DNA from: a bacterium
GTDB taxonomy: Bacteria > Oederibacteriota > PGYV01 > Palsa-1178
DNA: 64,000 nt
NCBI GenBank assembly: GCA_037138355.1
Contig: JBAXIL010000001.1
Coordinates: 1 to 64,000, forward strand
Direction of reading: 5' to 3'
Positions 2 to 16,673 of this stretch are shown piece by piece. How positions within the stretch are numbered: the first letter of the stretch is position 1; the number at the start of each line of letters is the position of its first letter. Below the pieces are notes generated by a model. That model was not told the DNA's origin. It searched no databases and worked only from the letters and a program-made list of their open reading frames with translations. The position numbers and the translations under genes were made by a program.

Positions 2-874
2 TATCCAACAGCAACAAACACAGCAGGAATATCAACAAACACATTTACACCTACAGCAACATTTACAAAAACAAATACTCCGCCAATAGGCTCAACAAAT
101 ACATTTACACCAAGTGTAACAAATACAGTACCAGCAGGTTCAACAAATACATTTACACCAACATATACAATGACAGCGGTTTCAAATCCATCACTTTCTG
201 TGGTAATTTCTGTACCTACAAATGTAACAGTAGGACAGCAGTTGACAGTTAGTATGGTAGTTACTAACAATGGCAATGCTGCAATCTCAGGAGTTTTACC
301 TGCACCTCTTGTTATAACTGGAAACACATCTTCTTTACAACCTGTAAGTACTCCTCCACCATCTGCTGGAAGTCTCGCAGTTGGAGCAAGCACAACATTT
401 ACTTGGGTATATAATGTAGTAGCTGAAGGTAATGTGACTATAAAAGGAACAGCGTCTGGCAATAGCAATGCAGTCGTAAGTCCTGATAGCAATATTGCAG
501 CAGCATCATTGAAACCTACAGTACCAACACCAGCACAGACAATAGCTTTCTTTGTTCCTGTAGATACGAGAACACCAGTTGTTCTTATTTATCCTAATCC
601 AAATCCAACACCAGGAACAACGCCAGATAGAGTAATTGTATTTACAGTAACAAAACCAGTATCAAAAACTGTGTTTAAAATATATACAAGTATGGGTAGA
701 TTGATAAGAAAATATGAAAACCCTACAACATATTCGCAGGGTGGAAAAGCAATAGTTGTTCCAGGAGTTTACTTTCAGGGTATGGCAAGAGGCGTATATT
801 ATTATGTGATAATAATAACGGATGCTTCAGGAAAAGAAGCAAAGTCACCTATAGCAAAAGTAGTAATTCAATAA
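2..874 (+). CDS. 5'-truncated secreted protein: Thr/Pro-rich linker, Ig-like (DUF11/CARDB-like) domain, T9SS type A-like C-terminal sorting domain
   Basis: Frame 2 is open from base 2 (YPTATNTAGISTNTFTPT...) into ORF 170..874. The C-terminus has YPNP...KIYTSMGRLIRK...GVYYYVI...KVVIQ. Confidence 0.8.
   Translation, partial: YPTATNTAGISTNTFTPTATFTKTNTPPIGSTNTFTPSVTNTVPAGSTNTFTPTYTMTAVSNPSLSVVISVPTNVTVGQQLTVSMVVTNNGNAAISGVLPAPLVITGNTSSLQPVSTPPPSAGSLAVGASTTFTWVYNVVAEGNVTIKGTASGNSNAVVSPDSNIAAASLKPTVPTPAQTIAFFVPVDTRTPVVLIYPNPNPTPGTTPDRVIVFTVTKPVSKTVFKIYTSMGRLIRKYENPTTYSQGGKAIVVPGVYFQGMARGVYYYVIIITDASGKEAKSPIAKVVIQ
32..158 (+). repeat. Three degenerate copies of TCAACAAAYACATTTAC encoding STNTFTP in the Thr-rich linker
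   Basis: Copies begin near 32, 92 and 139; an in-frame coding repeat. Confidence 0.7.
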
Positions 875-920
875 AAATGGTCATTGTCACAAAGGCAATT
901 GCCAGTGATATAGAAAAATA

Positions 921-954
921 AAAAAATGCCTGGCTTAGAAGCCAGGCTTTTTTT
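921..954 (+). terminator. Rho-independent terminator
   Basis: GCCTGGC-ttagaa-GCCAGGC stem (928-947) followed by a T run and preceded by an A run. Confidence 0.85.
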
Positions 955-975
955 ATTTTATCTTAAAAAGTATTA

Positions 976-992
976 TTGAAACTTTGTTTCAA
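976..992. promoter_or_regulatory. Candidate operator palindrome TTGAAAC-N3-GTTTCAA
   Basis: Perfect 7-bp inverted repeat about 60 bp upstream of the predicted -35 of the 1135 operon. Confidence 0.4.
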
Positions 993-1054
993 ATTCAGAG
1001 TGGCATAAAATGCTTATAAGTATATTATTAATAAGCGTTTTAATGAGAATGCTA

Positions 1055-1084
1055 TTGACTAAAAGCATAAGGGTTTGGTATAAT
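1055..1084 (+). promoter_or_regulatory. Sigma-70-type promoter of the outer-membrane protein/CBM operon
   Basis: TTGACT-N18-TATAAT with an extended -10 TG; AAGGAG RBS before ATG 1135. Confidence 0.7.
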
Positions 1085-1134
1085 AAATTCAATATTTTTA
1101 TAGGGAATGCTATTAAATATATTAAGGAGAAAGC

Positions 1135-3549
1135 ATGAAAAGGACACACCTAATTTACGCTTTTATTTTCCTTTCCATCTTTATTATACCAATATACGCA
1201 GGAGAGACAGAGGATATGTTTATTCCCCAGTCGTCTATAGTATATGAAGATTTTTATCAAATTGCACAAGCCGGTTTAATAAAATCAGTTCCAGCAGAAC
1301 AATTCAGAATTAGTCCAATGACAGAATATGATGCGGCAGGATATATGGTTGAAGCCGCTGCGCAGTATGCTCAGGCAGGCGGACCTACGGAAGTAAATAG
1401 TCAGATGGTAGCAAAAATAAAACAGTACTACAATATATACAGAAAAAAAGCTTTTGAGATATATGGAAAGACAATGGAAATGAGAAAGAAACTTGCCAAT
1501 ATAGAAAAACTTCTTAAATCTCCTGATATAAAAGCCTTTGATGAAACTCTCACAGAAGCAAAGGCAGCTATGTTTGATGTAGAAACAGAATTTGCAAATA
1601 CCACTTTTAGAGGAGTTCCTCCTTTTAAAGTTATGGGTATGCTTCAAGCAAGATGGCAGGATGTTGAAACATTTGGAATAACTCACGCACATCACACTTC
1701 TCTTGGCGGAACACTAATGTCACTTTGGACAGAAGGAATTGTTTCTCCTGATGTGAGTTTTAAACTTAATTTGAATTTTGAAAGACCAGCAGACGAAGCG
1801 AAAAAAAATACTTTTGGCGAATACTGGGGAACAGGACAAAGATTTCTTGATAAATATACAATCAATCTTAATCTCTACGGTTGGCAGATTTTTACAGGCT
1901 TTTTCTGGGAAGATATTACACCATTTATAGCAAAAGGAGTTCTCTCGGATAGACCAGCTTTGTTTGATCGTGACCCTTATGTACTTGAAGAAACAACAAA
2001 AGGACATTTTGAAAACGCATTCTTGCACTCTTTTGTTAAGCGCGGAGATATTTGGTCTAAACATGGTTTTTATGGTGTAGAGTTTATGAATATGGCTCTT
2101 CCAACAGGCGCTAGATTAAAAATTATGGGTGGTAAAGCAGAAAAGTTTGATGAGCAATATGATAAACTTTATTTATATGAATTTGCAGGAAGGGTAACGC
2201 AACCAATAGATTTAGGTATATTTAGCGGAAGTGAAGTATCACTTAACTTCTTTAATACCTCAAATGAAAAAGCAGAAATAGAAACTCTTGCACCAACTTC
2301 TCCAGATAATAATTTTCCCCCAAGTCCTGATGGCTATATACAGGCGTCTACTATTGTGGGTGGAGATGCTAAAATTAAAATTTTTAATGTCTTTAATATA
2401 AATGGTGAGTTTGAACATGCGGACACATTTAGTTATTTATTAAAACAGCCAGTGGGCGTATTCGGTTCTCCTCCATATTTTCTACCACGATATCATCAAG
2501 AAGGTACGGCTATGTTTGTTAATGCTTTAATAAAAGAAGTAATCCCTGTAACTGTAGAGCTTAAATATACAAGAATAGATCCTAATTATATTGCGAATTC
2601 TTCTGCTATCAATGATACTACAAGAAGAAGCGTTAATTTGGCAGGAGATGGAGTTGATTTAAAATGGGATACTTATGCTGGCGATCCTACACTCCTATAT
2701 AATAACTTATCAAGATTAGATGCGAGAGCAACAATTGAAATGCCAGTTTCTATGGGCTTTATTAATCTATGTTATGGAAACTCCGGTCAGATAAATCCAA
2801 CTACGAATAGAATATTTGTTGATCACTTTCTTTTTGGAAACAGATTAACAGGAGCTATGTGGTGGCAGTTATTTTATAGCCAATACGGATATCCTGTGCC
2901 AGGAAGAGATAGTGGTTTCTATGCATATAATGCCATTGATCATCCACAAATAGCTGGTGCCGGAACTGGAATGAGATATATATTTACTGATAAATGGTTA
3001 ACAAATAAAGAAATGATAAAATCAACTGATCCAAACTCTGCATCTGGTGACGATCAGTCACAAAAGTTTACATCAAATATATCAGTGGAGCTTAAGTTTT
3101 CACTGCATAAACTATTGGCTGCAATGGGAATCCCATCAAACAATCTATTTCTTGAAATATATGATGAGATGACTACATTAAGGTCAGGTAATGATATGAT
3201 GCCAACTTTTGATCCGCGTACTTTATTTTCACAGAATATTTTTGATTCGTTTATAGTTTACAACCTAACAAGAAAAACAAACATAATGTTTGAATACGCT
3301 TTTGAGAGATGGGCTACCAGAAACTCTTGGGTGGCATACGCAACAGGGGCTACCCCAACTGGATACCTTTATGAATCTATACCTATAGATTATATGGATC
3401 AGAATTTCGGTGTTGGTTTTGATTATGATTTTGCACCAAGAACTTCATTATTCATGAGAGTTAAGAAGTTTATACATAATGATTTGGTTGTAAAGTCACA
3501 AAGTTTTGATGGTTGGTATCTTGGCTTTGAAATTAAAAATTTCTTCTAA
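1135..3549 (+). CDS. Outer-membrane beta-barrel protein with N-terminal SLH-like motif and coiled coil (putative carbohydrate porin)
   Basis: Signal peptide; IVYEDFYQIAQAGLIK...PMTEYDAA resembles SLH; helical linker; amphipathic strands ending YLGFEIKNFF (terminal Phe). Confidence 0.65.
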   Translation: MKRTHLIYAFIFLSIFIIPIYAGETEDMFIPQSSIVYEDFYQIAQAGLIKSVPAEQFRISPMTEYDAAGYMVEAAAQYAQAGGPTEVNSQMVAKIKQYYNIYRKKAFEIYGKTMEMRKKLANIEKLLKSPDIKAFDETLTEAKAAMFDVETEFANTTFRGVPPFKVMGMLQARWQDVETFGITHAHHTSLGGTLMSLWTEGIVSPDVSFKLNLNFERPADEAKKNTFGEYWGTGQRFLDKYTINLNLYGWQIFTGFFWEDITPFIAKGVLSDRPALFDRDPYVLEETTKGHFENAFLHSFVKRGDIWSKHGFYGVEFMNMALPTGARLKIMGGKAEKFDEQYDKLYLYEFAGRVTQPIDLGIFSGSEVSLNFFNTSNEKAEIETLAPTSPDNNFPPSPDGYIQASTIVGGDAKIKIFNVFNINGEFEHADTFSYLLKQPVGVFGSPPYFLPRYHQEGTAMFVNALIKEVIPVTVELKYTRIDPNYIANSSAINDTTRRSVNLAGDGVDLKWDTYAGDPTLLYNNLSRLDARATIEMPVSMGFINLCYGNSGQINPTTNRIFVDHFLFGNRLTGAMWWQLFYSQYGYPVPGRDSGFYAYNAIDHPQIAGAGTGMRYIFTDKWLTNKEMIKSTDPNSASGDDQSQKFTSNISVELKFSLHKLLAAMGIPSNNLFLEIYDEMTTLRSGNDMMPTFDPRTLFSQNIFDSFIVYNLTRKTNIMFEYAFERWATRNSWVAYATGATPTGYLYESIPIDYMDQNFGVGFDYDFAPRTSLFMRVKKFIHNDLVVKSQSFDGWYLGFEIKNFF

Positions 3550-3565
3550 ATTGGAGGTATATTAA

Positions 3566-5758
3566 ATGTTAAAGAAAATTGCTATTTTACTCGCAGTATT
3601 ACTGGTGCCGGTTTTGATTATGTCTGCCGGTGATACAATTAGCCGTGACCAAAAGACTTATCAAGATTTGAAATCCTTAAGTGATGCTGGTATCATTACA
3701 AAACCACTTACAAAGGATAATTTAACAAGAGCCGAAGTAGTGGAGTACATAAATGACGGAGTTCATAATGTGCTTGCTGCTAATGTTTTAGCTACTTCGA
3801 CTTCGTCAGATACTGAACTCTCAGGGCAGATTGAAAAGCTGTATAATCTCGTTAAAGCATATATGACAGATATGATGAAAACACAGCAAAAGCTTGATTC
3901 TATAATAGAAACTATAGGTGATTTAAAAGTAAAAAAAGATTCGATTGAAAAAAGGCAAGATAAACTGTTGAGCTCTATGGGTATGAGAATTAATGGTGAG
4001 TCGTCAGCATATATGACAGATGTTCTTTTATTTGGAAGTAAATATATAGCAAATGCAGAGCCAGCAAAGCGTTATAGACCTATAACTCAGTATCTGGATT
4101 TGAAATTTTCCTTAAATGCTACAAAAGAATTATATGCAGAAGCCACATTTAGAGTTGAAAATCTTTATGGTGGTTTTTGGGGTTCTATGGACATACAGGG
4201 TTTAAAAAGATTTTTTATTCAGGGACAGTATCCTGTATCTTTTGTTTTTGGAGATTATCAAGGTAAATTAACACCTTATACATTGTGGGCTGTTGATGAT
4301 CAAAGACCTTATGAGGCAAAAATATTTTCTGATAAAAGAGATATGAACAAAAAAGAATTGTATCTTTTAGACAATACTTGGCCTTTATCAGGAGCAAAAG
4401 CTCAGACCATTTTGGAATTATTTGATACAGTGGATGTGGATATAACAGTTTTAGGTGCCAGACTTGGAGAGGGAATGAATTCAGGAGAACCTGCAAGAAG
4501 TTATTACCAACTATATAGTCCATCTCAGGGAGTATTTATGCCGAATCCATATAATCATGATGAATATTTGATTGGTGGAAGCATACATTCTGGAGTTTCT
4601 GATTTATTTAAATTAGGAGTTAACTATTCTGAAATAATTGATTCAAAAGACACAGGAACTTTTAGTTATGCCACTTTAGATAATTATGTAACATCAGCAG
4701 ATGGAGAGTTTAAAATAAAATTTGGTGATGATGGACAAGCAAAAGTAAAAGCAGAGTTTGCAAAATCAAGTTACACTAATAATAAATGGTTTCAAAATTA
4801 TATAACTGATACGGCTCTTAAAGGAGCAGCAGAAGCTACTTTTATGAATTCAACATTAGGCGTAAGTTATAGCTTAGTAGGAAACTCATATACAGCTTAT
4901 GCGGCCCAGACGCGCATGTCGGATGAAAGAAATAGTTATATGTATCTTACGCAGAATAATGCATGGAATATCACAACTGCACCACCTTCATATTTGTTGG
5001 GAGGAAAAACATATCCTTTCACAAGATATAATCCAGCAATTAATGTGAGTTATGGTAATTCAGCCGGTTCGGGTTCAACTGGTTTGGCATACAAGCAGGA
5101 AAATCTTTTCTATTTCCCAGTTTATGAAAACAATACAATGCCTTATGGAGATTCAACTCCGAACAGAAAAAATATTACAGTTAAATATTCAGGCAATTAT
5201 TTGGATGGTATTATCCAGCCTTCTATTCAATATGTCATGGCTAATGAAATCGTTTCTTCTTTAGATGTAACTTATACAGTAAAACCAAGAAACTTCACTG
5301 TTATAGAAGGCGGCGTGAAAAGTGAGTTTACGCTTGGCATTCCTTGGACGATTTCTGCCGGTTACAAAACGGAAAATACAGACAATGGCCAGACAAACTC
5401 TATAGCTTTAATTTCCAGTACTATTGATGCTGGCATTGAGGGAACAATTATTAAAAAGAAATTAAAAGCATATGCTGGCTACAAGAATATAGCATTTGCA
5501 GGTTCTGAATATGGTGTAGCTTGGAATGCTATGAGCTTTAGTTATAAATATGGTTTGCGTAAATATGATGCTACTATAACAAGTATGGGAGCTGGCGTGG
5601 AGTATTATATAGCCAAGCCTGCTGTTATAGGAGTTTCATTCACAAACACAGTCTTAGCAGATAAAAATAACAAGACATTAACGGATTTTTTGAATAATAC
5701 AAAACCATTAAGCTACAGTGTGCAGGAATTGGATATAAAGGTTTCAATAAGCTTCTAA
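3566..5758 (+). CDS. Outer-membrane beta-barrel protein with N-terminal SLH-like motif and coiled coil (putative carbohydrate porin)
   Basis: GGAGG RBS; signal peptide; TYQDLKSLSDAGII...LTRAEVV is SLH-like; coiled coil leads into MRINGE; ends LDIKVSISF. Confidence 0.7.
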   Translation: MLKKIAILLAVLLVPVLIMSAGDTISRDQKTYQDLKSLSDAGIITKPLTKDNLTRAEVVEYINDGVHNVLAANVLATSTSSDTELSGQIEKLYNLVKAYMTDMMKTQQKLDSIIETIGDLKVKKDSIEKRQDKLLSSMGMRINGESSAYMTDVLLFGSKYIANAEPAKRYRPITQYLDLKFSLNATKELYAEATFRVENLYGGFWGSMDIQGLKRFFIQGQYPVSFVFGDYQGKLTPYTLWAVDDQRPYEAKIFSDKRDMNKKELYLLDNTWPLSGAKAQTILELFDTVDVDITVLGARLGEGMNSGEPARSYYQLYSPSQGVFMPNPYNHDEYLIGGSIHSGVSDLFKLGVNYSEIIDSKDTGTFSYATLDNYVTSADGEFKIKFGDDGQAKVKAEFAKSSYTNNKWFQNYITDTALKGAAEATFMNSTLGVSYSLVGNSYTAYAAQTRMSDERNSYMYLTQNNAWNITTAPPSYLLGGKTYPFTRYNPAINVSYGNSAGSGSTGLAYKQENLFYFPVYENNTMPYGDSTPNRKNITVKYSGNYLDGIIQPSIQYVMANEIVSSLDVTYTVKPRNFTVIEGGVKSEFTLGIPWTISAGYKTENTDNGQTNSIALISSTIDAGIEGTIIKKKLKAYAGYKNIAFAGSEYGVAWNAMSFSYKYGLRKYDATITSMGAGVEYYIAKPAVIGVSFTNTVLADKNNKTLTDFLNNTKPLSYSVQELDIKVSISF

Positions 5759-5805
5759 ACTATTTGATAAAAAAGAAATTAATTATAATTTAAAGGAGAA
5801 TGACT

Positions 5806-6549
5806 ATGAAAAAGACAATTGCATTAGTAACAGTTTTAGCAGTAATGTTTTCAGCTTTAGCGTTTGCAGAAAAAGCAACAACATCGCTTCCTCTGATTAC
5901 AGGAGCAATGACTATCGATGGTTCACTTGCGGATTGGCAAGCATGTGGTATCAAGCCAGTAACAATTAATACACCAGCACAGGTCGCAATAGGCGTACCG
6001 TATTGGCTTGGGGCAGAAAAACAGTCTGGCGAAGTTTATGTAGCTTTTTCAGAAACCACACTTTATATAGCGGCAAAAGTTAAGAGTGTAAAGGGATTAA
6101 AAAATGTAAATACAGAAGGAAAAATATATGATGGAAACGGCGTAGAACTTTTTATTGGATTTGATAACAGTGATCCAAGCAGAGAAATGTATACTGAAAC
6201 AGATTATCAGTTAGGTTTTTCAACAGGAGATTACTCAAAAGCAAATAAAAAGTTTGCTGTACAACCATCTGTGAGAGCATTTAATTTAAATAAACAGGTA
6301 GATGGTGCTGTAATAGTTGCTAAACCAGTAGAGGGTGGATATATTATAGAAGCATCAGTGCCAGCAGCATTTCTTGCTGGTTATGATGTGAAAAATGGTG
6401 GCGATATATCATTTGACATAGGCATAGATGATATAGGCGATAAAGGACTTGTTCGTAAAGTTCAAATGACATGGTCAGGCGATAAAGACGGATGGAAAAA
6501 TCCTAAAGGTTGGGGCAAGGCAAATATAAAAGCAATAGCGTGCAAATAA
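5806..6549 (+). CDS. Exported CBM9-like (DOMON-type) sugar-binding protein
   Basis: Signal peptide; TIDGSLADW, LYIAAKV, GNGVELFI, GYIIEASVP and FDIGIDD motifs. Start 5806 chosen from GGAG spacing. Confidence 0.75.
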   Translation: MKKTIALVTVLAVMFSALAFAEKATTSLPLITGAMTIDGSLADWQACGIKPVTINTPAQVAIGVPYWLGAEKQSGEVYVAFSETTLYIAAKVKSVKGLKNVNTEGKIYDGNGVELFIGFDNSDPSREMYTETDYQLGFSTGDYSKANKKFAVQPSVRAFNLNKQVDGAVIVAKPVEGGYIIEASVPAAFLAGYDVKNGGDISFDIGIDDIGDKGLVRKVQMTWSGDKDGWKNPKGWGKANIKAIACK

Positions 6550-6590
6550 ACGCATTAATAAATAAAAATATTTTGGAGGTGTAGATTAAG

Positions 6591-7667
6591 ATGAAAAAAT
6601 TTTTGACAATGGCTTTGGTTGTTTTAGTTGTTTTAGCAATGGTGACTATTGGTTGTAACAAAAAGAAAAATATACCATTGACACCTTCTGATTTTGGAAC
6701 AGCAACGACAGTTGTAGCTGCAACTATGACATTTACAAATACGCCTTATTCTGGAACCGCTACTTCTACGATTGCAGTACCAACGGTGACTTTTACAGTG
6801 ACAGTTTCAGTGCCTGCATGGCCTTCAGGTTTTATTGATGACTGTGAGGATACATTTGCACCTAATGCTAATAATTATAATGGTGCTAATCCAACCCTGA
6901 ACCTCGGCGGATATTGGGTAACTTACGATGATAATAGTAATACAAATAGTGGAACTTCGTATGTATGGCCAATGTCACAGACATGGGCGACAAGAAAACT
7001 TATTGGAGATCCAGCAGGAACTCCTCCATATGCAAACCCACCATTTGCAATGTCAGCACCAGGATATTCTGGCTCACTATATGGTACTGCTTTTGCGGTA
7101 AATGTTACAGGTTATGTTACTACTAATCTGATAACTCCTCCAGGTGAATCAGCAGGTGGATTTAAATATGGATTTATTGGTTTTGGAACTCAGCTTACAG
7201 TTACAGCAGGAGAGCCAACTTGTAATGAAGTTGATATCTCTGCATACACAGGCGTAAGATTCTGGTGCAAAGGTGATGCAGTTGCTAATGGTTGGAGTGT
7301 CAAAATACCATTTACAACAACTACGAACAGTAATTGTGATGGAACTGTATCAACCACAGCGTCATCTTTAGTACAAAGTGATGATTATAAACATACATTT
7401 ACAGCTCCTGCTACTTGGACACAAATATCTTTCACTTTCGCGCAATTTACTCAAGAAGGTTGGGGTATTGCGGTAAGTATTGCTGATGGTAGATATTGGC
7501 AGGGTTGTTCGGCTACTCATGTAGGAACAACACCAGGATGGCTTGCTACATGTCCTGTATCAACTATAATTCAACATGTAAAGCAGATACAATTCCAGTC
7601 AGTAGGACAAGCAGTAGTTTATCCTACTGTAAGAACCATATGGGTAGATGATTTAGAACTTTTCTAA
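6591..7667 (+). CDS. Lipoprotein with Thr-rich linker and CBM11/CIA30-like carbohydrate-binding domain
   Basis: Lipobox TIG-C; IDDCED, GGYWVTYDD, DISAYTGVRFWCKG, WTQISFTFAQFTQEGWG and IWVDDLELF motifs. Confidence 0.75.
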   Translation: MKKFLTMALVVLVVLAMVTIGCNKKKNIPLTPSDFGTATTVVAATMTFTNTPYSGTATSTIAVPTVTFTVTVSVPAWPSGFIDDCEDTFAPNANNYNGANPTLNLGGYWVTYDDNSNTNSGTSYVWPMSQTWATRKLIGDPAGTPPYANPPFAMSAPGYSGSLYGTAFAVNVTGYVTTNLITPPGESAGGFKYGFIGFGTQLTVTAGEPTCNEVDISAYTGVRFWCKGDAVANGWSVKIPFTTTTNSNCDGTVSTTASSLVQSDDYKHTFTAPATWTQISFTFAQFTQEGWGIAVSIADGRYWQGCSATHVGTTPGWLATCPVSTIIQHVKQIQFQSVGQAVVYPTVRTIWVDDLELF

Positions 7668-7679
7668 AATATTTTAATA

Positions 7680-7710
7680 TCTGGGGAACGGTGATAAACC
7701 GTTCCCCAGA
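7680..7710. promoter_or_regulatory. Strong intergenic hairpin without U-tail (mRNA stabiliser or partial terminator)
   Basis: Perfect 13-bp stem TCTGGGGAACGGT-gataa-ACCGTTCCCCAGA. Confidence 0.65.
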
Positions 7711-7737
7711 GTAATTAATATAAAGAGGTGATTTCGA

Positions 7738-8403
7738 GTGAAAAGATTATTTAGTTTTATCCCAGTACTTATAATATTTTTTATTATCAGTTCCTGTTCA
7801 GGTGTTTTTATTGTAAAAACTCCTAAATTAACAGGTGGTAAAATCGAAAAGATAGGATATGTGGCTAAAAAAGCACCTGTGCTTTTTGATGATTTTGAAG
7901 CTGGCACAGTAGTAGGTGCATATGCTTATGCAAACTCTGCTGGTGCAGCCTCAGCTAAACTAATGATTAGTGAACCCCCAGTGGATGTTTCACACGGTGG
8001 TAAATATGCTGCTAAAGCTGTATTTGATACTGGTACTAATGCTGATTGGGGTTGTGGTTTTGGAGCACAGTCAACATACGGTGGCGGGTATATAGATGCT
8101 ACTGGTCGCGAGTATTTAAGTATGTGGGTAAAAGTAAATGAAGGTGTTGCATATTATATATTTGTAAATGAGGCCAATGCAAATGGTGCAGATGGTGAGT
8201 TTTGGAATGGTACATTGTTGATAGGAACTGGAAATTGGCAGTTGTATGAAGTACCACTTGAGGATTTCTACAAAAATATATATTCTGGAACACAAGGCGG
8301 AAATGGAGTTTTAGATTTATCAGGAATTGGAACAGTAGGGGCACAGTTAGGTGGAGCACAGGGTAATGGCGAATTCATGATGGATGATATAACATTTAGA
8401 TAA
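7738..8403 (+). CDS. CBM11-like carbohydrate-binding lipoprotein
   Basis: GTG start with GAGGTG RBS; lipobox ISS-C; FDDFEAG, DGEFW, WQLYEVPLEDF and MDDITF motifs. Confidence 0.75.
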   Translation: MKRLFSFIPVLIIFFIISSCSGVFIVKTPKLTGGKIEKIGYVAKKAPVLFDDFEAGTVVGAYAYANSAGAASAKLMISEPPVDVSHGGKYAAKAVFDTGTNADWGCGFGAQSTYGGGYIDATGREYLSMWVKVNEGVAYYIFVNEANANGADGEFWNGTLLIGTGNWQLYEVPLEDFYKNIYSGTQGGNGVLDLSGIGTVGAQLGGAQGNGEFMMDDITFR

Positions 8404-8444
8404 AAAATTTTATAGGATTGATAAGTAATAATCAGGAGGATAAA

Positions 8445-9107
8445 TTGAAAAAAATATCATTAATAGCAATTTTGACAGCAGCAGTAATTTTATTAAATGG
8501 TTGCGCTGGCATGGTTTCTTTTAGAAATCCAAATAAGGCAAAAGTTGTTAAAATAGCTGGGCAATCACAAGTAGTCCAACCAGTAAAATATGAGGATTTT
8601 GAAAATGGAACTTTAGTTGGATCTTACGGATACCAAAACACTGCAGGTGGTGCAGCCGTTAAATACATGATAAGCGATCCTTCGACAGATAAAGCACATG
8701 ACGGACAATATTGTGGTAAGGCAGTCTATGACACTGGAACAAACTCTGATTGGGGTTGCGGTTTTGGTTCGGGTTCATCATATGGAGCAGGTTATTTTGA
8801 TGCTACTGGCAGGGAATATGTAACATTTTGGGCGAAACTTCCTGAAAACTTTACTTTTTATGTTTTTATAAATGAAGCAGCTGCTAATGGGGCTGATGGT
8901 GAAAACTGGAGTGGTCCATCAATTACTGGTTCTGGAAAGTGGATTGAATATACAGTCCCATTTGATGAGTTCTTCAAAAATGTCTATGCGGGAAATCAAA
9001 TGGGTAATAATACTTTTGATCCACCTGGTATAGGACAGGTAGGTTTTCAGTTAGGTGGAAATCAGGGTAAATCTATTTTCTTGGTGGATGATATTTGGTT
9101 CAAATAA
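8445..9107 (+). CDS. CBM11-like carbohydrate-binding lipoprotein, paralog of 7738..8403
   Basis: TTG start after AGGAGGA; lipobox LNG-C; shares DTGTNxDWGCGFG, DATGREY and NEAxANGADGE with the upstream gene. Confidence 0.75.
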   Translation: MKKISLIAILTAAVILLNGCAGMVSFRNPNKAKVVKIAGQSQVVQPVKYEDFENGTLVGSYGYQNTAGGAAVKYMISDPSTDKAHDGQYCGKAVYDTGTNSDWGCGFGSGSSYGAGYFDATGREYVTFWAKLPENFTFYVFINEAAANGADGENWSGPSITGSGKWIEYTVPFDEFFKNVYAGNQMGNNTFDPPGIGQVGFQLGGNQGKSIFLVDDIWFK

Positions 9108-9125
9108 TAAAAGACTATAAAATAT

Positions 9126-9155
9126 AAAAAAACGGGCGAAAGCCCGTTTTTTTTT
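9126..9155 (+). terminator. Rho-independent terminator closing the 1135-9107 operon
   Basis: A7-CGGGC-gaaa-GCCCG-T9. Confidence 0.9.
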
Positions 9156-9335
9156 ATAAAAAATTTTGAAAATATATAATAGCAATAAAATATAGTAATA
9201 ATATAATTTGTTTTGGTTAATTGAATTTGTGGTTTTTTGTAAATTCGAAACTTTTTTTTGATATTATTGTCATATTAATAGGACTTAATATAAGATTTTG
9301 TTTTAAATTTTTTTATTATGAAAGGTTAAAATGTA

Positions 9336-11726
9336 ATGAAGAAACTTATTGCAATAATGATACTTATGTCTATTTTTACAAATATTTTTCCAATTGGTGG
9401 AACTATTCCTACAGGATTACCAACAAACTTTGGATTTGGTTGTATTGATAAGGCCGATTCCTATGCGACAGACGGACCACATTTTTACAAAGGAACCACT
9501 GTTGGCACTTGTTGGGATTATTCATATGCATATCTGACATCAGATTTTGCTTCTAATACTTGGACGAACTGGGTAGCAAGTGGTGCTTGGGCAAAGCAAG
9601 AATTGCAGTATTGGGAAAGTAAGGGACAAATTCAAGTTTTTTCATTTTACTATACTCCATATACGCTAAGTAATTACACTCAAACAGCAAAGATGAAGAC
9701 TTATTTTCAAGATTTTAAACTTCTATGTCAAATTATTGCAACAAATTCAACGAAGAAAGTCATAATCCATATAGAGCCTGACCTTTTAGGATTTTGGAGA
9801 AAAGCTGGGAAAACTGCGACATCTACTGGAGCAGTAGTTGTAGGGAGTGCTGTATTTGGAGAAACTTGTGACGGGATTGTAATTAATAATTTACCAGATA
9901 CTATTGCAGGGTGGAGTGAGGCCTTGTATAGAATTAAAAACCAATATGGTGGCGGAAAAGTTTTACTTGCACATCATTATACGCATTGGGGTAATGTAAA
10001 TTCTAAAGATGTAATTATTGATTCTTCTTTAACGCAGACTGATATCAATACTAATGTTGATGACACTACAAGCTTTATAAATCAAATTGAAAATGGAAAC
10101 AAATACGATTTGATATTTGTTGATCCATCAGATAGAGATGCTGATTGGTACAGGGTAATAGGTGGAGCTTCTAATACCAGATGGACAGACCCATCACATT
10201 CATATAGTTCGACAAGAAGTTGGGGAAAGCTTGGTTATATATATGACAGAGTATCGACAAATCTTGATAGAAGGTTGATGTTCTGGCAAGTACCCGTTGG
10301 AAATACTTATTATACTACCTGTAATAACAGTTCTTATCATTATCGTGATAATAGTGCGCAAGAGTTTATTCCTTCAACTACGGCTGATGGAACTTCGGGA
10401 AGTCCAGGTGATGCATATTTATCAAATGATACATCTAAAGGACCTGGTTATTGGGCAACTCGCGGGTTTATTGGAATATTGTTTGGAGAGGGTGGTTACG
10501 ATCATTACTCTTCTCCAAATGATATGTGTCATTTACGAGATTATGTAACAGATGGAATTACAAATCCTGGTTCAGATGCAAATGCTGGCGGCCCATCATT
10601 TGATGTTTGGGGGAAAGCAGTCTCAAACTCTACAGACAATGATGGTGGTTATATTAGAGCAGCAGTTGCTAAATATTGTTCAACAGGAAAATATTCACTG
10701 ATAGCATCTCCTGTGGCGACCGCGACTAATACTAAAACCAATACTCCACAAGCACCTACAGCGACTACTACTAAAACTAATACTCCACAAGTACCTTCAG
10801 CGACTACTACATTTACTCCTTCTAAAACAAGTACTCAATTAATACCAACTTTTACTTCAACAAATACACCAAAAACACCAACCTATACAATTACTTCTAC
10901 AAGCACAGTAATATATTTCACGCCGACCTCTACTGTGACTTCTTTACCACCAACTGCGACTATAACAAATACAGCAGTATTACAAACCGTTACAATAACT
11001 ATCACAAAAACAATTACACCCATCGCTACAGTTTCAGTTACGGATATACCAGTGAATTCAGCAACAGCTACTATGACTAAAACTGTAAGCCCAGTTATTA
11101 CAAATTCGCAGACCTCGACTCAAATACCAACCAGTACTTTAACCAATATAATAACTGCAACAGTTACACCGACAAATATGATAGCAATACTAAGTCCAAC
11201 GAGCACGAAAGTAAATACTGTAATTGCAAGTATAACAATGACTGCTACACAAAAGAATACTATTATGCCATCCCCAACTATGACAATAACTCGTACTTTA
11301 AGTCCAATTATTACAAATACAATAGTTATAACTGCGACAGCAATTAACTCAGCCACTATTATTTCCACTATGACATCTATTGCAACTGCAACCTTTACTT
11401 CCACTATTGCCGTAGATCAAGGTATACTTTCTATACCAAGTCCGCCTATGGCATATCCTAACCCCTATACAGGTCAGCAGCTAAATATTAAATTCAGTAT
11501 TTCAAGCCATGCAACAAAAATAGCTGTGAAAATATATACAATCTCACGCAGATTAATTAGAAAGGTTCAAACGGATGGAGTATTTCATCCTGGGGATTGC
11601 TATTTTACAATAAAGCGAGAGTATTTATTGGGACTGTCTAAGGGAACATATCTATATCAAATTATTATAAACGATAGTAATGGTAGAGAAGCAAAATCAA
11701 AGACTGGCACAATTATTATTCAATAG
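9336..11726 (+). CDS. Secreted putative glycoside hydrolase (TIM-barrel-like), long Thr-rich linker, T9SS type A-like CTD
   Basis: Signal peptide; aromatic-rich N-terminal domain with IIHIEPDLLGFW and FWQVPVGN; about 230-aa Thr-rich tract; C-terminal YPNP...KIYT...GTYLYQI. Confidence 0.65.
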   Translation: MKKLIAIMILMSIFTNIFPIGGTIPTGLPTNFGFGCIDKADSYATDGPHFYKGTTVGTCWDYSYAYLTSDFASNTWTNWVASGAWAKQELQYWESKGQIQVFSFYYTPYTLSNYTQTAKMKTYFQDFKLLCQIIATNSTKKVIIHIEPDLLGFWRKAGKTATSTGAVVVGSAVFGETCDGIVINNLPDTIAGWSEALYRIKNQYGGGKVLLAHHYTHWGNVNSKDVIIDSSLTQTDINTNVDDTTSFINQIENGNKYDLIFVDPSDRDADWYRVIGGASNTRWTDPSHSYSSTRSWGKLGYIYDRVSTNLDRRLMFWQVPVGNTYYTTCNNSSYHYRDNSAQEFIPSTTADGTSGSPGDAYLSNDTSKGPGYWATRGFIGILFGEGGYDHYSSPNDMCHLRDYVTDGITNPGSDANAGGPSFDVWGKAVSNSTDNDGGYIRAAVAKYCSTGKYSLIASPVATATNTKTNTPQAPTATTTKTNTPQVPSATTTFTPSKTSTQLIPTFTSTNTPKTPTYTITSTSTVIYFTPTSTVTSLPPTATITNTAVLQTVTITITKTITPIATVSVTDIPVNSATATMTKTVSPVITNSQTSTQIPTSTLTNIITATVTPTNMIAILSPTSTKVNTVIASITMTATQKNTIMPSPTMTITRTLSPIITNTIVITATAINSATIISTMTSIATATFTSTIAVDQGILSIPSPPMAYPNPYTGQQLNIKFSISSHATKIAVKIYTISRRLIRKVQTDGVFHPGDCYFTIKREYLLGLSKGTYLYQIIINDSNGREAKSKTGTIIIQ
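10722..10810 (+). repeat. 39-bp tandem coding repeat (about 2.3 copies; ATxTKTNTPQxPx)
   Basis: GCGACTAATACTAAAACCAATACTCCACAAGCACCTACA, then GCGACTACTACTAAAACTAATACTCCACAAGTACCTTCA, then GCGACTACTAC. Confidence 0.85.
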
Positions 11727-11857
11727 TTGCTGCTAAATCACAAATATTTATTTATTAATTTGATTTTTTATCATTCATTTCTATAATGCTTAATTATCCT
11801 CAGTAATATATAATTGTTAACAATATTGTTTATAATTATTCAATTTTTACAATAAAC

Positions 11858-11885
11858 TTGACTTCAATTAGGGCTATGATAAAAT
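11858..11885 (+). promoter_or_regulatory. Candidate sigma-70 promoter
   Basis: TTGACT-N16-TAAAAT with TG extension. Confidence 0.5.
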
Positions 11886-12001
11886 ACATTAACATATATG
11901 ATAAATGCTTCAGTTTAATAGGACTTTCCAGAAAACTTGATTATTTAATAATTCCGTAATATTGTTTAGTTCATTACTTAAACTGAAAGGTGGAGTTTAT
12001 A

Positions 12002-13081
12002 ATGCACAAAATGATTATTTATACATTCTTACTTGTTTTTTCCTTTATGATTTCTGCTGGATGTAATAATGCTCCAGCTGAAACAAACATTAGTCCAGAA
12101 AGCATTTTTAATATGGCAACGGATGAAATGATGAATGGAAATGATGCCTTGGCAATTGATTTATACTATAAGCTGGTTGATTACTATCCTGATTTTAGTA
12201 AATACAGAGCAGATTCAATGTTTAGACTTGGTACTTTGCTATATAAAACAGAACGATATGATGAGGCAGAAAAAATATTTGGATTATTTGCAGATACATA
12301 CGGTAATGACAGTAGATTGAAAATGGTTTATGAAAAGTTATTATATATTTACATGCAGGAGTTCCATGATGAAGAACGCGCACAAATTATAAGAAATTTA
12401 TATGCAAATAAATTCAAGAAAAGTGAGGTTTTATCAGAAATTGATAGAACCATTAATGTTTTATCGATGGATGATACGATAGGGTCGGCTGTTCTGGCTA
12501 TGGATGCTTCTGAAATAAGTATTATCCAAACATTAAAAATGGAAGAAATTGATAAGGAATTATTTCCAGTTAGAAATTATATATTGAAAAGCGTAAAATC
12601 CCCAGATGGTAAATATATGGTGGAGAAAAAAGAAGATAAAGGTAATAATTATCTTTACTTTGGTGCGTCTGAGATGAATACTCTAAAGATTGGTGGCTCT
12701 TTGGGTGGCTATGCTCCACAATGGTCCTGGAATAGCCGATATATAGTGTTTACATCTATGAACTGGCAAAAAAAAGAAAGAAAAATACTGATTTATGATT
12801 TGAAAGAAAGAGTTATAAGAAAACTTTTCACTGGAAAGGGAGTAGGGCCATTACTTTGTATATCTCCCGACTCTACGAAAATAGTTTTTAGTTGCTCTAA
12901 TAAATTATGGATAATGAAAATCAATGGAGATAAAGCCACTTTACTTAGTTCAACAGTTAATGCTAAAAATATCAGAATGATTGCCTGGTCAAGAGAAGGT
13001 GGTTCGATTATTTTTTCTAAGAAAAATGAATATAATAGATATTATTTTTGTAAGCTTGGTAAGAAAGATAGTGCAATATAA
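12002..13081 (+). CDS. Lipoprotein with TPR repeats and TolB/PD40-like beta-propeller repeats
   Basis: ATG 12002 after GGAG; lipobox SAG-C; BamD-like TPR (LVDYYPDF...SMFRLG); SPDGKY, PQWSWNSRYIVF, ISPDSTKIVF and WSREGGSIIF repeats. Confidence 0.7.
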   Translation: MHKMIIYTFLLVFSFMISAGCNNAPAETNISPESIFNMATDEMMNGNDALAIDLYYKLVDYYPDFSKYRADSMFRLGTLLYKTERYDEAEKIFGLFADTYGNDSRLKMVYEKLLYIYMQEFHDEERAQIIRNLYANKFKKSEVLSEIDRTINVLSMDDTIGSAVLAMDASEISIIQTLKMEEIDKELFPVRNYILKSVKSPDGKYMVEKKEDKGNNYLYFGASEMNTLKIGGSLGGYAPQWSWNSRYIVFTSMNWQKKERKILIYDLKERVIRKLFTGKGVGPLLCISPDSTKIVFSCSNKLWIMKINGDKATLLSSTVNAKNIRMIAWSREGGSIIFSKKNEYNRYYFCKLGKKDSAI

Positions 13082-13133
13082 AGTTAACACGATAGGTATG
13101 TCGATATAATTTAAATTAATGAGAAGGGCAAAA

Positions 13134-14153
13134 ATGGAAAAAATCACTATTTATGATGTGGCAAAAAAAGCAAAAGTTTCCATTTCTACGGCATCAAAGG
13201 CCTTAAATGATCGTAAAGATGTGGGAGACTCAACAAAGGAAAGAATAAGGGCAATTGCTGCTGATTTAAACTACGAGCCTTCTCATTTTGCTCGTGCTCT
13301 TGCTATGAGAAAAACTGGCAACATTGGCGTTATAACTGTAAGGTATTATCAAGCACCTATGTTGACTAATCCTTTTTATTTTAAAATTATTGAGGGAATA
13401 GAAGAGGAACTAATCAATACCGATTATAATCTGGTTACAAATGTTATCAGAAAAGAACAGGCAGAAGCAATGGAGATACCAAAAATGGTTAAAGAAAAAT
13501 CTGTTGATGGTATTATTTTATTGGGATATATGCCTGAAAAGTTTGTAAATTTGATTGTAAGTAAAGCACCGCCAACTATTATAGTGGATAATGTTATAAA
13601 AAATCCACCAGTGAGCACAATCCTAATGGATAATATGGATGGGGCAACTAAGGCGGTTGAATATCTTATAGATACTGGACACAAAAAAATTGCTTATTTA
13701 TCTGGTCCATCTTCGAGGTATAGTTTCATGCAAAGGGAGCAAGGATACAGAAAGGCTCATGCTGCAAGAGGCATACCTGTAAATGAAAAGTTCGTTTTAT
13801 TCAATGAAAGTGAAGAACGAGGAAATGAATGGATGAGTAAAATCTTAGCTACTAAAGATAGACCAGATGCAATTTTTGCCTGTAATGATGTACATGCTAT
13901 CCTTGCGATAAATATGCTAAAAGACCATGGACTCTTAGTACCTGATGATATAAGTGTGTTGGGTTTTGATAATATTGAAATGAGTGAGCATTTTATACCA
14001 TCACTTTCCACGGTCGATATTAATAAGCCAGGAATGGGAACAAAGGCCGCTCAAATGCTTGTGGACTTAATAAATACTAAAAATAACAAGGTTGAGAATA
14101 TTGTTTTTCCAACTTCAATAATCATTAGAAAATCAGTTAAAAATAGAGATTAA
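13134..14153 (+). CDS. LacI-family transcriptional regulator
   Basis: TIYDVAKKAKVSISTASKALN HTH; GHKKIAYL; VPDDISVLGFDN. Confidence 0.95.
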   Translation: MEKITIYDVAKKAKVSISTASKALNDRKDVGDSTKERIRAIAADLNYEPSHFARALAMRKTGNIGVITVRYYQAPMLTNPFYFKIIEGIEEELINTDYNLVTNVIRKEQAEAMEIPKMVKEKSVDGIILLGYMPEKFVNLIVSKAPPTIIVDNVIKNPPVSTILMDNMDGATKAVEYLIDTGHKKIAYLSGPSSRYSFMQREQGYRKAHAARGIPVNEKFVLFNESEERGNEWMSKILATKDRPDAIFACNDVHAILAINMLKDHGLLVPDDISVLGFDNIEMSEHFIPSLSTVDINKPGMGTKAAQMLVDLINTKNNKVENIVFPTSIIIRKSVKNRD

Positions 14154-14314
14154 CCTAATTTTCCCCATAAAACATTACTGTTTCAATCAATCCGTTTTTA
14201 TTAACTTCATATGGTTTTTTTGAGGTATTTGTATTATAATTATATACTATATATAATAGTGTTGCTTGTTTTAATGGCTATGCGAATTGCCATAATTTAT
14301 GAATCGAGGCTAAT

Positions 14315-15526
14315 GTGAAGCTAAAAATTGGGGATTTGTTTTTATACAGTCTTTTGGCGGTGGGTTTTTGTGCTCCAGTTTCCATAACCGCTGCTGAAGT
14401 ATTTATGATAATTGCTATTATAATATGGATTATATCGACTATAAAAAACAAAGTGAGTCTGAAAGAATCGTTTTCCTCCCCGTTGACATTGCCCATTGGA
14501 GTTTTCGTATTAATTCATTTGATAGCTTCTTTTACAGGAATTTCTCCAACTCACAGCTTACAAGATTTTTCTAAAGCGTGGATTCTTTTGATATTTTTTG
14601 CCGCTATGCATGGATATAGTAAAGTATATCCTTTAAGAATGGGTGCTGGCTTTTATGCAGGTGGCGCAGTTTTGGCAGCGACTTATGCCATAATTATGAC
14701 AATAATACATAGATATATTGGACATGATTTGGACTTCAGAGCATCTTCTTTTTCTGGTTCATATATGCATGCGGGTGGTCTTTTCATGATGGGTGTTATT
14801 ACCGCAGCTTGTATTGTGGCATATAGATTTAAAAATGAAAATGGAGACCACACTCCAAAGTTTCTATATGTGGGTGGTCTTATTATTATTTCTATTGGAT
14901 TACTTTTTACATTTACAAGAGGTTCTTGGATTGCAGCTGGCGTAGGTTTGGCAGTATTGACTTTTTTGACTGACAAAAGACTTTTTGGTGGATTACTTAT
15001 ATTACTTGTTTTAACTGGGGCACTGGCATGGAATACATCCTTCATGCGCAGACTTTCGTCTTCGTTTATTCTTAAAGACAATACTTCTCAAATGGAACGC
15101 GTTTATATGTGGAAAGCTGGACTACAAATAATAAAGGACAGACCTTTGCTCGGAATAGGGACTGCAAATTTGGAAAAAATCTATCCGACTTATAAAGATC
15201 CGCGTGCTGTAGAGCCTAATGCTGGGCATGTTCATAATAATATACTTCAGATTGCTATCATTGATGGTTTACCAGGTCTTGCTGCATTTTTGTGGATATT
15301 TGTAGCGTTCTGGATTGAGTTATACAAGGGAATAAAAAAAGCCAACAATGCCGTATTTAAATATGTACTTATCGGCGGTTTTTCGATAAGTATTGCTTTC
15401 TTTGTTAACGGCTTTTTTGAATATAATTTTTTCTCTTCACAGCCAGCAATTGCGTTTTGGTATCTAATGGGAGTTTGTATGGCTGCAATCAAACTTGAAA
15501 AAAATGGTGTATTGAATACTAAGTGA
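14315..15526 (+). CDS. O-antigen ligase (WaaL/Wzy_C) family membrane protein
   Basis: Multiple TM helices; TFTRGSW, ERVYMW, PLLGIG and HVHNNILQ motifs. Confidence 0.88.
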   Translation: MKLKIGDLFLYSLLAVGFCAPVSITAAEVFMIIAIIIWIISTIKNKVSLKESFSSPLTLPIGVFVLIHLIASFTGISPTHSLQDFSKAWILLIFFAAMHGYSKVYPLRMGAGFYAGGAVLAATYAIIMTIIHRYIGHDLDFRASSFSGSYMHAGGLFMMGVITAACIVAYRFKNENGDHTPKFLYVGGLIIISIGLLFTFTRGSWIAAGVGLAVLTFLTDKRLFGGLLILLVLTGALAWNTSFMRRLSSSFILKDNTSQMERVYMWKAGLQIIKDRPLLGIGTANLEKIYPTYKDPRAVEPNAGHVHNNILQIAIIDGLPGLAAFLWIFVAFWIELYKGIKKANNAVFKYVLIGGFSISIAFFVNGFFEYNFFSSQPAIAFWYLMGVCMAAIKLEKNGVLNTK

Positions 15527-16599: not shown

Positions 16600-16673
16600 A
16601 AGCAGGCGTGATTTAAGATATTATTTATGTGAAAAATTGTCGCTGAGGTTTGTTTTAATCAGCATGGTGAATT

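Follow-up and report, generated by a model that had tools for sequence, protein, structure and literature searches.

A Six-Gene Operon of an Uncultured Freshwater Bacterium Encodes Two Predicted Wall-Tethered Barrels Related to Cytophaga hutchinsonii CHU_1276 and CHU_1277

Organization of the Operon

The window analyzed here, a stretch of 64,000 nucleotides, stems from the genome of an uncultured bacterium from freshwater that belongs to the Goldbacteria/FCPU426 group (1.66 Mb, 94% complete, 91 contigs). Close to its start, at 1055–9155, lies an operon of six plus-strand open reading frames which are separated by gaps of 16–70 bases and whose products are all exported: two large outer-membrane channels, here designated A and B, and four sugar-binding-type proteins, C to F. 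An earlier note on this DNA had claimed that one promoter and one terminator bracket six exported proteins, and our scans for open reading frames and regulatory sites bore this out. The unit comprises the following features (aa, amino acids):

928–947 (+): terminator that closes the gene upstream, left boundary of the unit; 8-pair stem with 6 G-C pairs, then a T run
1055–1084 (+): sigma-70-type promoter-like site, TTGACT, 18 nt, TG-TATAAT; consensus match only
1135–3549 (+): protein A, 804 aa
3566–5758 (+): protein B, 730 aa; begins 17 bases past the stop codon of A
5800–6549 (+): protein C, 249 aa
6591–7667 (+): protein D, 358 aa
7738–8403 (+): protein E, 221 aa
8418–9107 (+): protein F, 229 aa; TTG start uncertain
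9126–9155 (no strand assigned): two-way intrinsic terminator, right edge of the unit; 12-pair stem at 9126–9153 with A and T runs on either side

Within 800–14400, the site at 1055–1084 is the best promoter match, agreeing with the consensus at 11 of 12 positions and carrying an extended −10 TG. Neither promoter-like sites (68 vs 61.7 expected in shuffled sequences) nor terminator-like sites (6 vs 6.7) are enriched in this region; because the counts match those of the shuffles, the argument rests on the intergenic positions of the sites and not on their number. The export signals were read by eye from the translations: type I signal peptides are present in A, B, and C, the lipoboxes TIGC, ISSC, and LNGC in D, E, and F, respectively, and both A (NFF) and B (SF) end in phenylalanine. 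Metatranscriptome contigs from two libraries of one freshwater sample, possibly the one from which the genome was assembled, lie on all six genes, which speaks for presence only, and one of them (3450–3633) bridges the A–B junction. No X10/X20 metatranscriptome contig lies on 9073–17000 though DNA contigs cover this part; as these are contigs, this is a sign neither of silence nor of any ranking. One DNA contig of run X1, which joins 9548 to 15528, was treated as unreliable because it has only 21 letters on one side.

About 65 bases 5′ of the −35 hexamer lies a perfect 7+3+7 palindrome (976–992). We considered it as a LacI operator and rejected it: it is the sole copy in the genome at up to one mismatch and is absent from 38 other loci. 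Looser matches within the window number 4 vs 4.4 expected by chance, and no regulon could be defined.

Distant Homology of the Barrels to CHU_1276 and CHU_1277

No Pfam or NCBIfam family, Plug included, matches A or B, the PDB yielded no match to either single sequence, and among 5.8 billion proteins their families comprise 42 (A) and 53 (B) clusters, which are mostly unnamed. Each is present in a single copy in the genome. Profile comparison by hhalign relates the two to each other (prob 95.4, E 1.6e-8, 419 columns), which identifies them as distant paralogues.

The earlier note had suggested a likeness of the two barrels to CHU_1276 and CHU_1277 of C. hutchinsonii, and the following comparisons lead to the same proteins. 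When reference genomes were scanned with the A profile, 19 Goldbacteria-type loci and one Cytophagaceae locus came up; in the latter, L022, an A-like gene is followed by a B-like gene. Profile A1 aligns with the Cytophagaceae protein of L022 at prob 98.4 and E 4.9e-15, and a search with this protein led to one of C. hutchinsonii ATCC 33406, whose cluster contains ABG58548.1, 'hypothetical protein CHU_1276'. In a genome that encodes the ATCC 33406 protein at 100% identity, the chu_1276-1280 cluster (locus L035) is present as five consecutive genes: CHU_1276 (747 aa), CHU_1277 (606 aa; ABG58549.1 cluster), CHU_1278 (380 aa), CHU_1279 (375 aa), and a glycoside hydrolase family 9 (GH9) enzyme. Like A and B, the proteins CHU_1276 and CHU_1277 and the homologues from L022 are without any Pfam or NCBIfam match; UniRef labels CHU_1277 'TonB-dependent receptor', and CHU_1278 is labeled a lipoprotein.

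Profile A1 aligns with CHU_1276 over 482 columns, reaching the C-terminal Phe-Phe (prob 95.1, E 3.3e-8), and profile A2 with CHU_1277 over 530 columns (prob 99.8, E 8.7e-30), whereas the crosswise pairs fail (A1 vs CHU_1277, prob 0.5; A2 vs CHU_1276, prob 0.9). The gene order, CHU_1276-type followed by CHU_1277-type, is identical in the window, in L022, and in L035. Because the matches are reciprocal and specific and the crosswise pairs fail, A is the counterpart of CHU_1276 and B that of CHU_1277. Judged by these profile alignments, A is a distant homologue of CHU_1276 and B a homologue of CHU_1277, and the duplication that gave rise to A and B appears older than the split between the Goldbacteria/FCPU426 and the Bacteroidota versions. 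The suggested likeness is thus confirmed, and so are the barrel motifs quoted along with it (NLYGGFWGS... and WEDITPF...LFDRDPY), which proved to be conserved family signatures within the best-aligning segments.

The family extends well beyond these loci: at E ≤ 0.001, the B family comprises 502 representative clusters among 1.84 billion representatives, with members that are mostly ~570 aa long and start at the barrel, and CHU_1276-type genes occur in 39 of the 41 genomes of the family to which L022 belongs, with up to 16 matches in one genome. In C. hutchinsonii, chu_1276, chu_1277, chu_1279, and chu_1280 are reported to be needed for cellulose use; the cluster has been called an atypical polysaccharide utilization locus (PUL), with similar clusters in two related Cytophagales, hence in three species in all, and CHU_1279 is described there as a tandem cellulose binder resembling carbohydrate-binding modules (CBMs) (PMC12016534). 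The literature that we searched, supplements excluded, contains no paper that ties CHU_1276/1277 to Goldbacteria or to tethers of the SLH type.

Predicted Architecture of A and B

AlphaFold 2 (AF2) models of A and B were built on alignments of 35 and 44 sequences and reached a middling mean confidence (pLDDT, predicted local distance difference test) of 68 and 73, respectively. The model of A starts with a short helical domain, continues with helices 89–127 and 130–155, and then consists of strands up to residue 802; the model of B likewise starts with a short helical domain, followed by helices 82–137 and by 22 strands up to residue 729. Strand counts and loop topology were taken from the secondary-structure strings of these models and not from coordinates. 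Read in this way, B would be a 22-strand barrel lacking a plug, with turns of 1–6 residues on one side and loops on the other, and A a plug-less, phenylalanine-final barrel of about 24–26 strands. Each protein is predicted to consist, in this order, of a signal peptide, an SLH-like domain (residues ~25–80 in A, 22–72 in B), a coiled coil (~89–155 in A, 82–137 in B), and the barrel (~160–804 in A, 138–730 in B).

Structure comparison by Foldseek (models of A and B) and VIA (model of B) recovered generic outer-membrane barrels only, at low template modeling (TM) scores. The top VIA match of B is the barrel part of the SusC-like protein 5t3r_D (Z 14.5, 389 residues aligned), and further matches include TonB-dependent receptors, Occ porins, ushers, and OmpM1, the last at a Z of 12.5 that lies within the generic range. 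All of these alignments are confined to model residues 138–730. The absence of a plug that the earlier note had read from the sequence is in line with both lines of evidence: no Pfam Plug match was obtained, and the structural alignments cover the barrel alone.

The outward loops of outer-membrane proteins are normally their most variable part. Across the B family, the fraction of majority residues is 0.61 in the predicted strands and 0.37 in most outward loops; it rises to 0.79 in L2 (199–208) and 0.82 in L3 (234–271, which contains a helix), and it is 0.63 in L7 (439–533), a loop of 95 residues of which 17% are aromatic. As these three loops are conserved where outward loops usually vary, they are the best candidates for a binding or constriction site, and it is these segments that CHU_1276/1277 have in common with them. 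The shared signatures are a Gly-Gly-Phe-aromatic-Gly turn, a Leu-Ser/Thr-Pro-aromatic-Thr motif in L3, and an L7 rich in aromatic residues and Asn. A predicted complex of the B barrel (138–730) with E (40–221) scored 0.00, which gives no answer and is uninformative either way.

What the earlier note had missed is the part that precedes the barrels. An alignment of 27 N-termini, 10 from proteins of the A type and 17 from those of the B type, served as a profile (A4), and its top three PDB matches were all SLH domains of Veillonella parvula OmpM: 8bz2 with E 4e-5, and 8bys and 8bym with E 5e-4. The single profiles match the SLH domain less well (A1 alone, E 0.005; A2 alone, E 0.43). In B-type proteins, a Thr-Arg-Ala/Glu-Glu motif is retained where SLH domains have their 'TRAE' motif; A does not have it. 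Deinococcus SlpA tops the Foldseek list for the B model at a TM of only about 0.2, and 12 of 35 A-family members match Pfam SlpA_C, the best with E 3e-7 and all under the 35-bit cut-off. Taken together, the models and profiles suggest that A and B hang from the cell wall via a coiled-coil stalk and an N-terminal SLH-like domain, an architecture known from OmpM and SlpA. The SLH-like domain must be a divergent one, since the Pfam SLH model has no match anywhere in the 94% complete genome and no pyruvyl transferase of the CsaB type (PS_pyruv_trans) was found in it. The genome also encodes two proteins with an OmpA domain.

Sugar-Binding-Type Proteins C to F

Protein C matches Pfam CBM9_1 with 59.7 bits (cut-off 23.4; E 4.5e-16), and its profile A5 (12 sequences) matches CBM9-2 of Thermotoga maritima Xyn10A (1i82, 1i8a, 1i8u) with E 4.9e-9. 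Going by its sequence, C is CBM9-like and secreted by way of a type I signal peptide, and a lipobox is absent. D is a lipoprotein in which a Thr-rich linker is joined to a β-sandwich domain that weakly resembles CBM11/CIA30 (Pfam CIA30, E 0.021); its profile A6 (14 sequences) matches CtCBM11 (2lro, 1v0a) with E 0.011. E comes closest to CBM11 among the three lipoproteins, with 26.8 bits against Pfam CBM_11, that is 0.2 under the cut-off of 27, and F is a lipoprotein and paralogue of E at 50% identity whose match to Pfam CIA30 is weak. The joint E/F profile A3 (20 sequences) matches CtCBM11 (1v0a) with E 5.7e-4. The assignment of all four proteins to CBM types in the earlier note therefore stands for C, and for D, E, and F a likeness to CBM11 is weakly supported. 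Compared with the binding proteins of C. hutchinsonii, the E/F profile gave no relation to CHU_1279 (prob 1.5) or CHU_1278 (prob 0.3).

C ends (6535–6549) in a conserved cysteine followed by lysine or glutamate, as do its homologues in L003, L004, L008, L016, and L020, and E and F contain a nearly invariant cysteine in an Asp-Trp-Gly-Cys-Gly-Phe-Gly motif. A disulfide link between the partners via these cysteines is conceivable. Two homologues of C (L012, 8424–9185; L014, 14833–15570) end a few codons early, which may be due to assembly errors or to real truncations.

Conservation and Association with Glycan Use

Relatives are labeled Goldbacteria/Goldiibacteriota, FCPU426 or, loosely, 'Spirochaetia' in public records. 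B follows A in 18 of the 18 Goldbacteria-type loci that reach beyond A, and in all 11 loci with enough downstream DNA the pair is followed by C, a gene of the D type, and one or more genes of the E/F type. Nine of these 11 have E as well as F; L003 is truncated where its contig ends, and in L020 there is just one gene of the E/F type. The six genes are co-conserved in the order A-B-C-D-E/F. The B family occurs in 22 of the 24 genomes of the order, the two misses being 61% and 83% complete, and in 38 of the 99 genomes of the phylum at E ≤ 1e-10. L038, which represents a distant family within this phylum, has A-like and B-like genes without the tether, and D-like, E/F-like, and CBM9-like genes come after them.

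Two further loci deserve mention as side observations. A distant phylum member (L036, G116:C1:594000-613000) has three consecutive barrels (839, 764, and 870 aa), of which one resembles A and two resemble B, and after which an mreB-like gene stands instead of the CBM-type lipoproteins. In a same-genus genome, the B gene (G138:C113:1995-4112) contains one in-frame TAG, which may reflect an assembly error or a real truncation.

The connection to glycans becomes apparent from second copies of the barrel pair, which lie within sugar-utilization loci in four of four relatives examined, one of them from the same genus:

L042: Mann_GBD-type lipoprotein, ATP-binding cassette (ABC) solute-binding protein, Sortilin/BNR protein, GH2, LacI-type binding protein
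L043: CBM11-like lipoprotein, solute-binding protein, two Sortilin/BNR proteins
L040: sugar kinase, GH29, solute-binding protein, barrel pair, Sortilin/BNR protein, GH31
L041: Mann_GBD-type lipoprotein, GH62, GH44, GH29 with CBM6/35

Sortilin/BNR proteins of such size are typical of GH74 xyloglucanases, and the enzyme set would suggest xyloglucan. The window genome itself contains two GH9 matches and three GH5 matches, two of the latter in one frame of 813 aa; true TonB-dependent receptors, recognized by Plug matches, number two, and both are encoded elsewhere. Goldbacteria have been captured on labeled cellulose and are reported with 24 CBM11 copies together with GH5, 8, 9, and 44 enzymes; the terms 'outer membrane', 'uptake', and 'porin' are absent from the main text of that report (PMC7031533).

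Flanking Genes

The operon is flanked on both sides by genes that the earlier note had described as encoding secreted Thr-rich proteins, one of them GH-like. The proteins encoded at 2–874 (+) and 9336–11726 (+) are Thr-rich indeed and have a common C-terminal domain; the label GH-like for the latter is only a structural lead. The common domain consists of the C-terminal 90–100 residues (11430–11726 in the downstream gene), recurs at the ends of many neighbor genes in related loci, and faintly resembles the CHU_C sorting domain of T9SS (type IX protein secretion) with E 0.029; it may be a lineage-specific sorting signal. A gene with this domain lies directly 5′ of A in nine loci (L003, L004, L008, L009, L014, L015, L017, L019, and L020).

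The downstream protein (9336–11726) is secreted and consists of an unnamed N-terminal domain of ~450 aa, a Thr-rich linker of ~250 aa, and the common C-terminal domain. Its structural look-alikes, drawn from the ESM Atlas, are hypothetical proteins that also carry CBM2, CBM5/12, ricin, or Mann_GBD modules, and it shows a distant likeness to GH26 (TM 0.52/0.68); it may represent an undescribed family of glycoside hydrolases. It is followed at 11990–13081 (+) by a lipoprotein with a BamD/YfiO-like tetratricopeptide repeat (TPR) region (TIGR03302, E 4.6e-13, under the cut-off) and a TolB/PD40-like propeller, which may be the BamD of this lineage fused to a propeller. The downstream LacI regulator seen by the earlier note is real: the gene at 13119–14153 has a matching Pfam family. 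Along 9336–14153, none of the GH-like protein, the TPR/propeller lipoprotein, and the LacI gene is conserved beside the operon in related loci. The window LacI lies 4 kb downstream; L008 is the sole case among the related loci with a LacI-family gene near the pair, there on the other strand, and in L037, from another distant family, a LacI gene lies directly 5′ of the barrel pair.

Comparison with Known Systems

Three known systems invite comparison. With the chu_1276-1280 cluster of C. hutchinsonii, the operon shares two adjacent outer-membrane barrels in the same order and in one-to-one homology to A and B, followed by exported sugar-binding-type proteins (CHU_1278 and CHU_1279), as well as the absence of a SusC/SusD pair. 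The barrels of C. hutchinsonii differ in that they are without SLH-like domain and stalk, the alignment with B beginning at residue 31 of the 606 residues of CHU_1277. Moreover, the binding proteins are unrelated in sequence: the CBM9- and CBM11-like proteins fill the same position and are analogous only. The C. hutchinsonii cluster holds a GH9 endoglucanase, whereas the window operon has none, and the two organisms belong to separate phyla, with 20–26% identity between the proteins.

OmpM (V. parvula OmpM1; 8bym, 8bys, 8bz2) and SlpA (Deinococcus radiodurans; 8agd, 8ae1) resemble A and B in the succession of their parts: an SLH-type domain at the N-terminus (SLH-like in A and B), then a stalk formed by a coiled coil, and the barrel at the C-terminus. 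For OmpM, this likeness lies in the match of its SLH domain to the joint N-terminal profile of the A and B types, and for SlpA in its place at the head of the Foldseek list of B and in the sub-threshold SlpA_C matches of 12 of 35 A-family proteins. The OmpM barrel has 16 strands and that of SlpA 30; by homology, A and B have barrels of the CHU_1276/1277 families rather than of the OmpM porin family. Further differences are the lack of a Pfam SLH match and of a detected CsaB in the window genome, and the presence of two adjacent, distinct paralogues within one operon that also encodes CBM-like proteins.

The SusC/SusD PULs of Bacteroidota likewise encode a large outer-membrane barrel together with surface glycan-binding lipoproteins; the barrel fold of B resembles that of SusC, and paralogous copies adjoin glycoside hydrolases and regulators. 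In contrast to these PULs, the window operon is without plug, TonB box, and SusD, and it has two barrels instead of one, with a predicted wall tether on each.

Proposed Function and Alternative Explanations

We consider it fairly probable that the operon at 1055–9155 encodes a TonB-independent, wall-anchored device that captures and imports β-glucan, and that it is a variant of the atypical PUL of C. hutchinsonii. According to this proposal, A and B would be paralogous plug-less barrels of roughly 22–26 strands that are hung from the wall by stalk and SLH-like domain. The secreted C and the lipoproteins D, E, and F would hold β-glucan chains or oligosaccharides at the envelope, from where the sugars would cross the barrels without energy from TonB. 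The conserved outward loops L2, L3, and L7 would act as binding or constriction elements, and A and B would also tie the outer membrane to the wall. Homology, domain architecture, co-conservation, and genomic association with glycan genes are demonstrated here; from these we infer sugar binding, transport, and any complex of A, B, and the lipoproteins, with a β-1,4- or mixed-linkage glucan as the best guess for the substrate. The earlier note had called the operon a distinct, PUL-analogous uptake machine. In kind this was right, as the homology now tested indicates, with uptake and substrate still at the level of inference; it is not distinct in the sense of a separate invention, being a variant of a module that is genetically known from C. 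hutchinsonii (PMC12016534).

Several observations weigh against this proposal. The identity of A and B to the Cytophaga proteins is just 20–26%, and what is known for CHU_1276/1277 is a genetic requirement and not transport. D, E, and F resemble CBM11 weakly, with all matches under the Pfam cut-off and E values of 6e-4 to 0.01, and these three proteins have no detectable relation to CHU_1278 or CHU_1279. The models of A and B reach a pLDDT of only 68 and 73, and strand counts and loop topology come from their secondary-structure strings; the missing Pfam SLH match and the missing CsaB belong here as well. Moreover, neither the operon nor its 11 syntenic relatives contain a glycoside hydrolase or an inner-membrane sugar transporter, and the neighboring GH-like protein and LacI are not conserved partners. 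Finally, a housekeeping role in the envelope would equally agree with the single copy, the near-consensus promoter, and an occurrence in nearly all genomes of the order.

This last point leads to the most serious alternative, in which A and B act mainly as tethers between outer membrane and wall and as general diffusion pores, like OmpM of diderm Firmicutes, and in which the β-sandwich proteins are structural. The SLH-like, coiled-coil, and barrel architecture would be expected of such proteins, as would single copies of A and B in a genome of 1.66 Mb, the best promoter-like match of the region, an occurrence in 22 of the 24 genomes of the order, and an operon without enzyme or transporter gene; OmpM, for its part, is reported to join tethering with nutrient uptake (PMC10628300). 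We nevertheless regard a pure housekeeping role as rather unlikely: A and B are specific homologues of CHU_1276/1277, which are tether-less and yet needed for cellulose use (PMC12016534), paralogous pairs lie within glycan loci in all four relatives examined, C is a bona fide relative of CBM9, and the genome has two OmpA-domain proteins that could bind the wall. This alternative overlaps with the proposed capture device more than it excludes it.

An altogether different function, in which barrels and lipoproteins form a platform that anchors or secretes the neighboring Thr-rich C-terminal-domain proteins, enzymes included, is suggested by the position of such genes directly 5′ of A in nine related loci and on both sides of the operon in the window, and by D-type domains that also occur in those neighboring genes. 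We deem it quite improbable, as the flanking genes are separate transcription units delimited by the terminators at 928–947 and 9126–9155 and the downstream C-terminal-domain gene is not conserved; furthermore, A and B resemble no known secretion component, Foldseek and VIA having found generic barrels only, and the Cytophaga homologues are tied to substrate use and not to secretion (PMC12016534). Still further removed is the notion that A and B are divergent TonB-dependent, SusC-like transporters. In VIA, the B barrel does match 22-strand TonB-dependent/SusC-like barrels best (Z 14.5 for 5t3r_D), CHU_1277 bears its UniRef label as a TonB-dependent receptor, and matches to TonB-dependent transporters are reported for a model of CHU_1276 (PMC12016534). 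However, the Plug model that readily finds the two real Plug proteins of the genome has no match in A or B, the alignments are barrel-only (138–730) with porins and ushers within about 2 Z units, and at the N-terminus an SLH-like domain and a coiled coil replace TonB box and plug. This notion is already largely refuted, and we give it next to no weight.

Extending the proposal of a capture and import device, we tentatively put forward, as a possibility that we hold to be less probable than the proposal itself, that A, B, and their CBM-type partners form one wall-anchored, TonB-independent translocon and thereby a third, ancient route of polysaccharide import beside porins and SusCD. The A/B duplication would then predate the split between the versions of the two lineages, and the tethered form would represent SLH anchoring outside the classical diderm Terrabacteria.

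Conclusion

The predicted fusion of the barrels to an OmpM-type tether suggests that a single protein can serve both glycan import and the anchoring of the envelope. Depending on where Goldbacteria belong in that scheme, the fusion may also matter for the division of tethering systems that has been reported between Terrabacteria and Gracilicutes (preprint 10.1101/2021.05.31.446380). How cellulose fragments pass the outer membrane without cellulosomes or SusCD has been a question since the genome of C. hutchinsonii, and chu_1276-1280 is the only genetic handle on it. In the literature searched, this cluster is described only in three Cytophagales species (PMC12016534). The barrel pair is now found to be conserved one-to-one in a second, unrelated phylum associated with cellulose, and this conservation provides a comparative map of the key residues, comprising the loops L2, L3, and L7 and the common motifs, which can be tested in the tractable Cytophaga.

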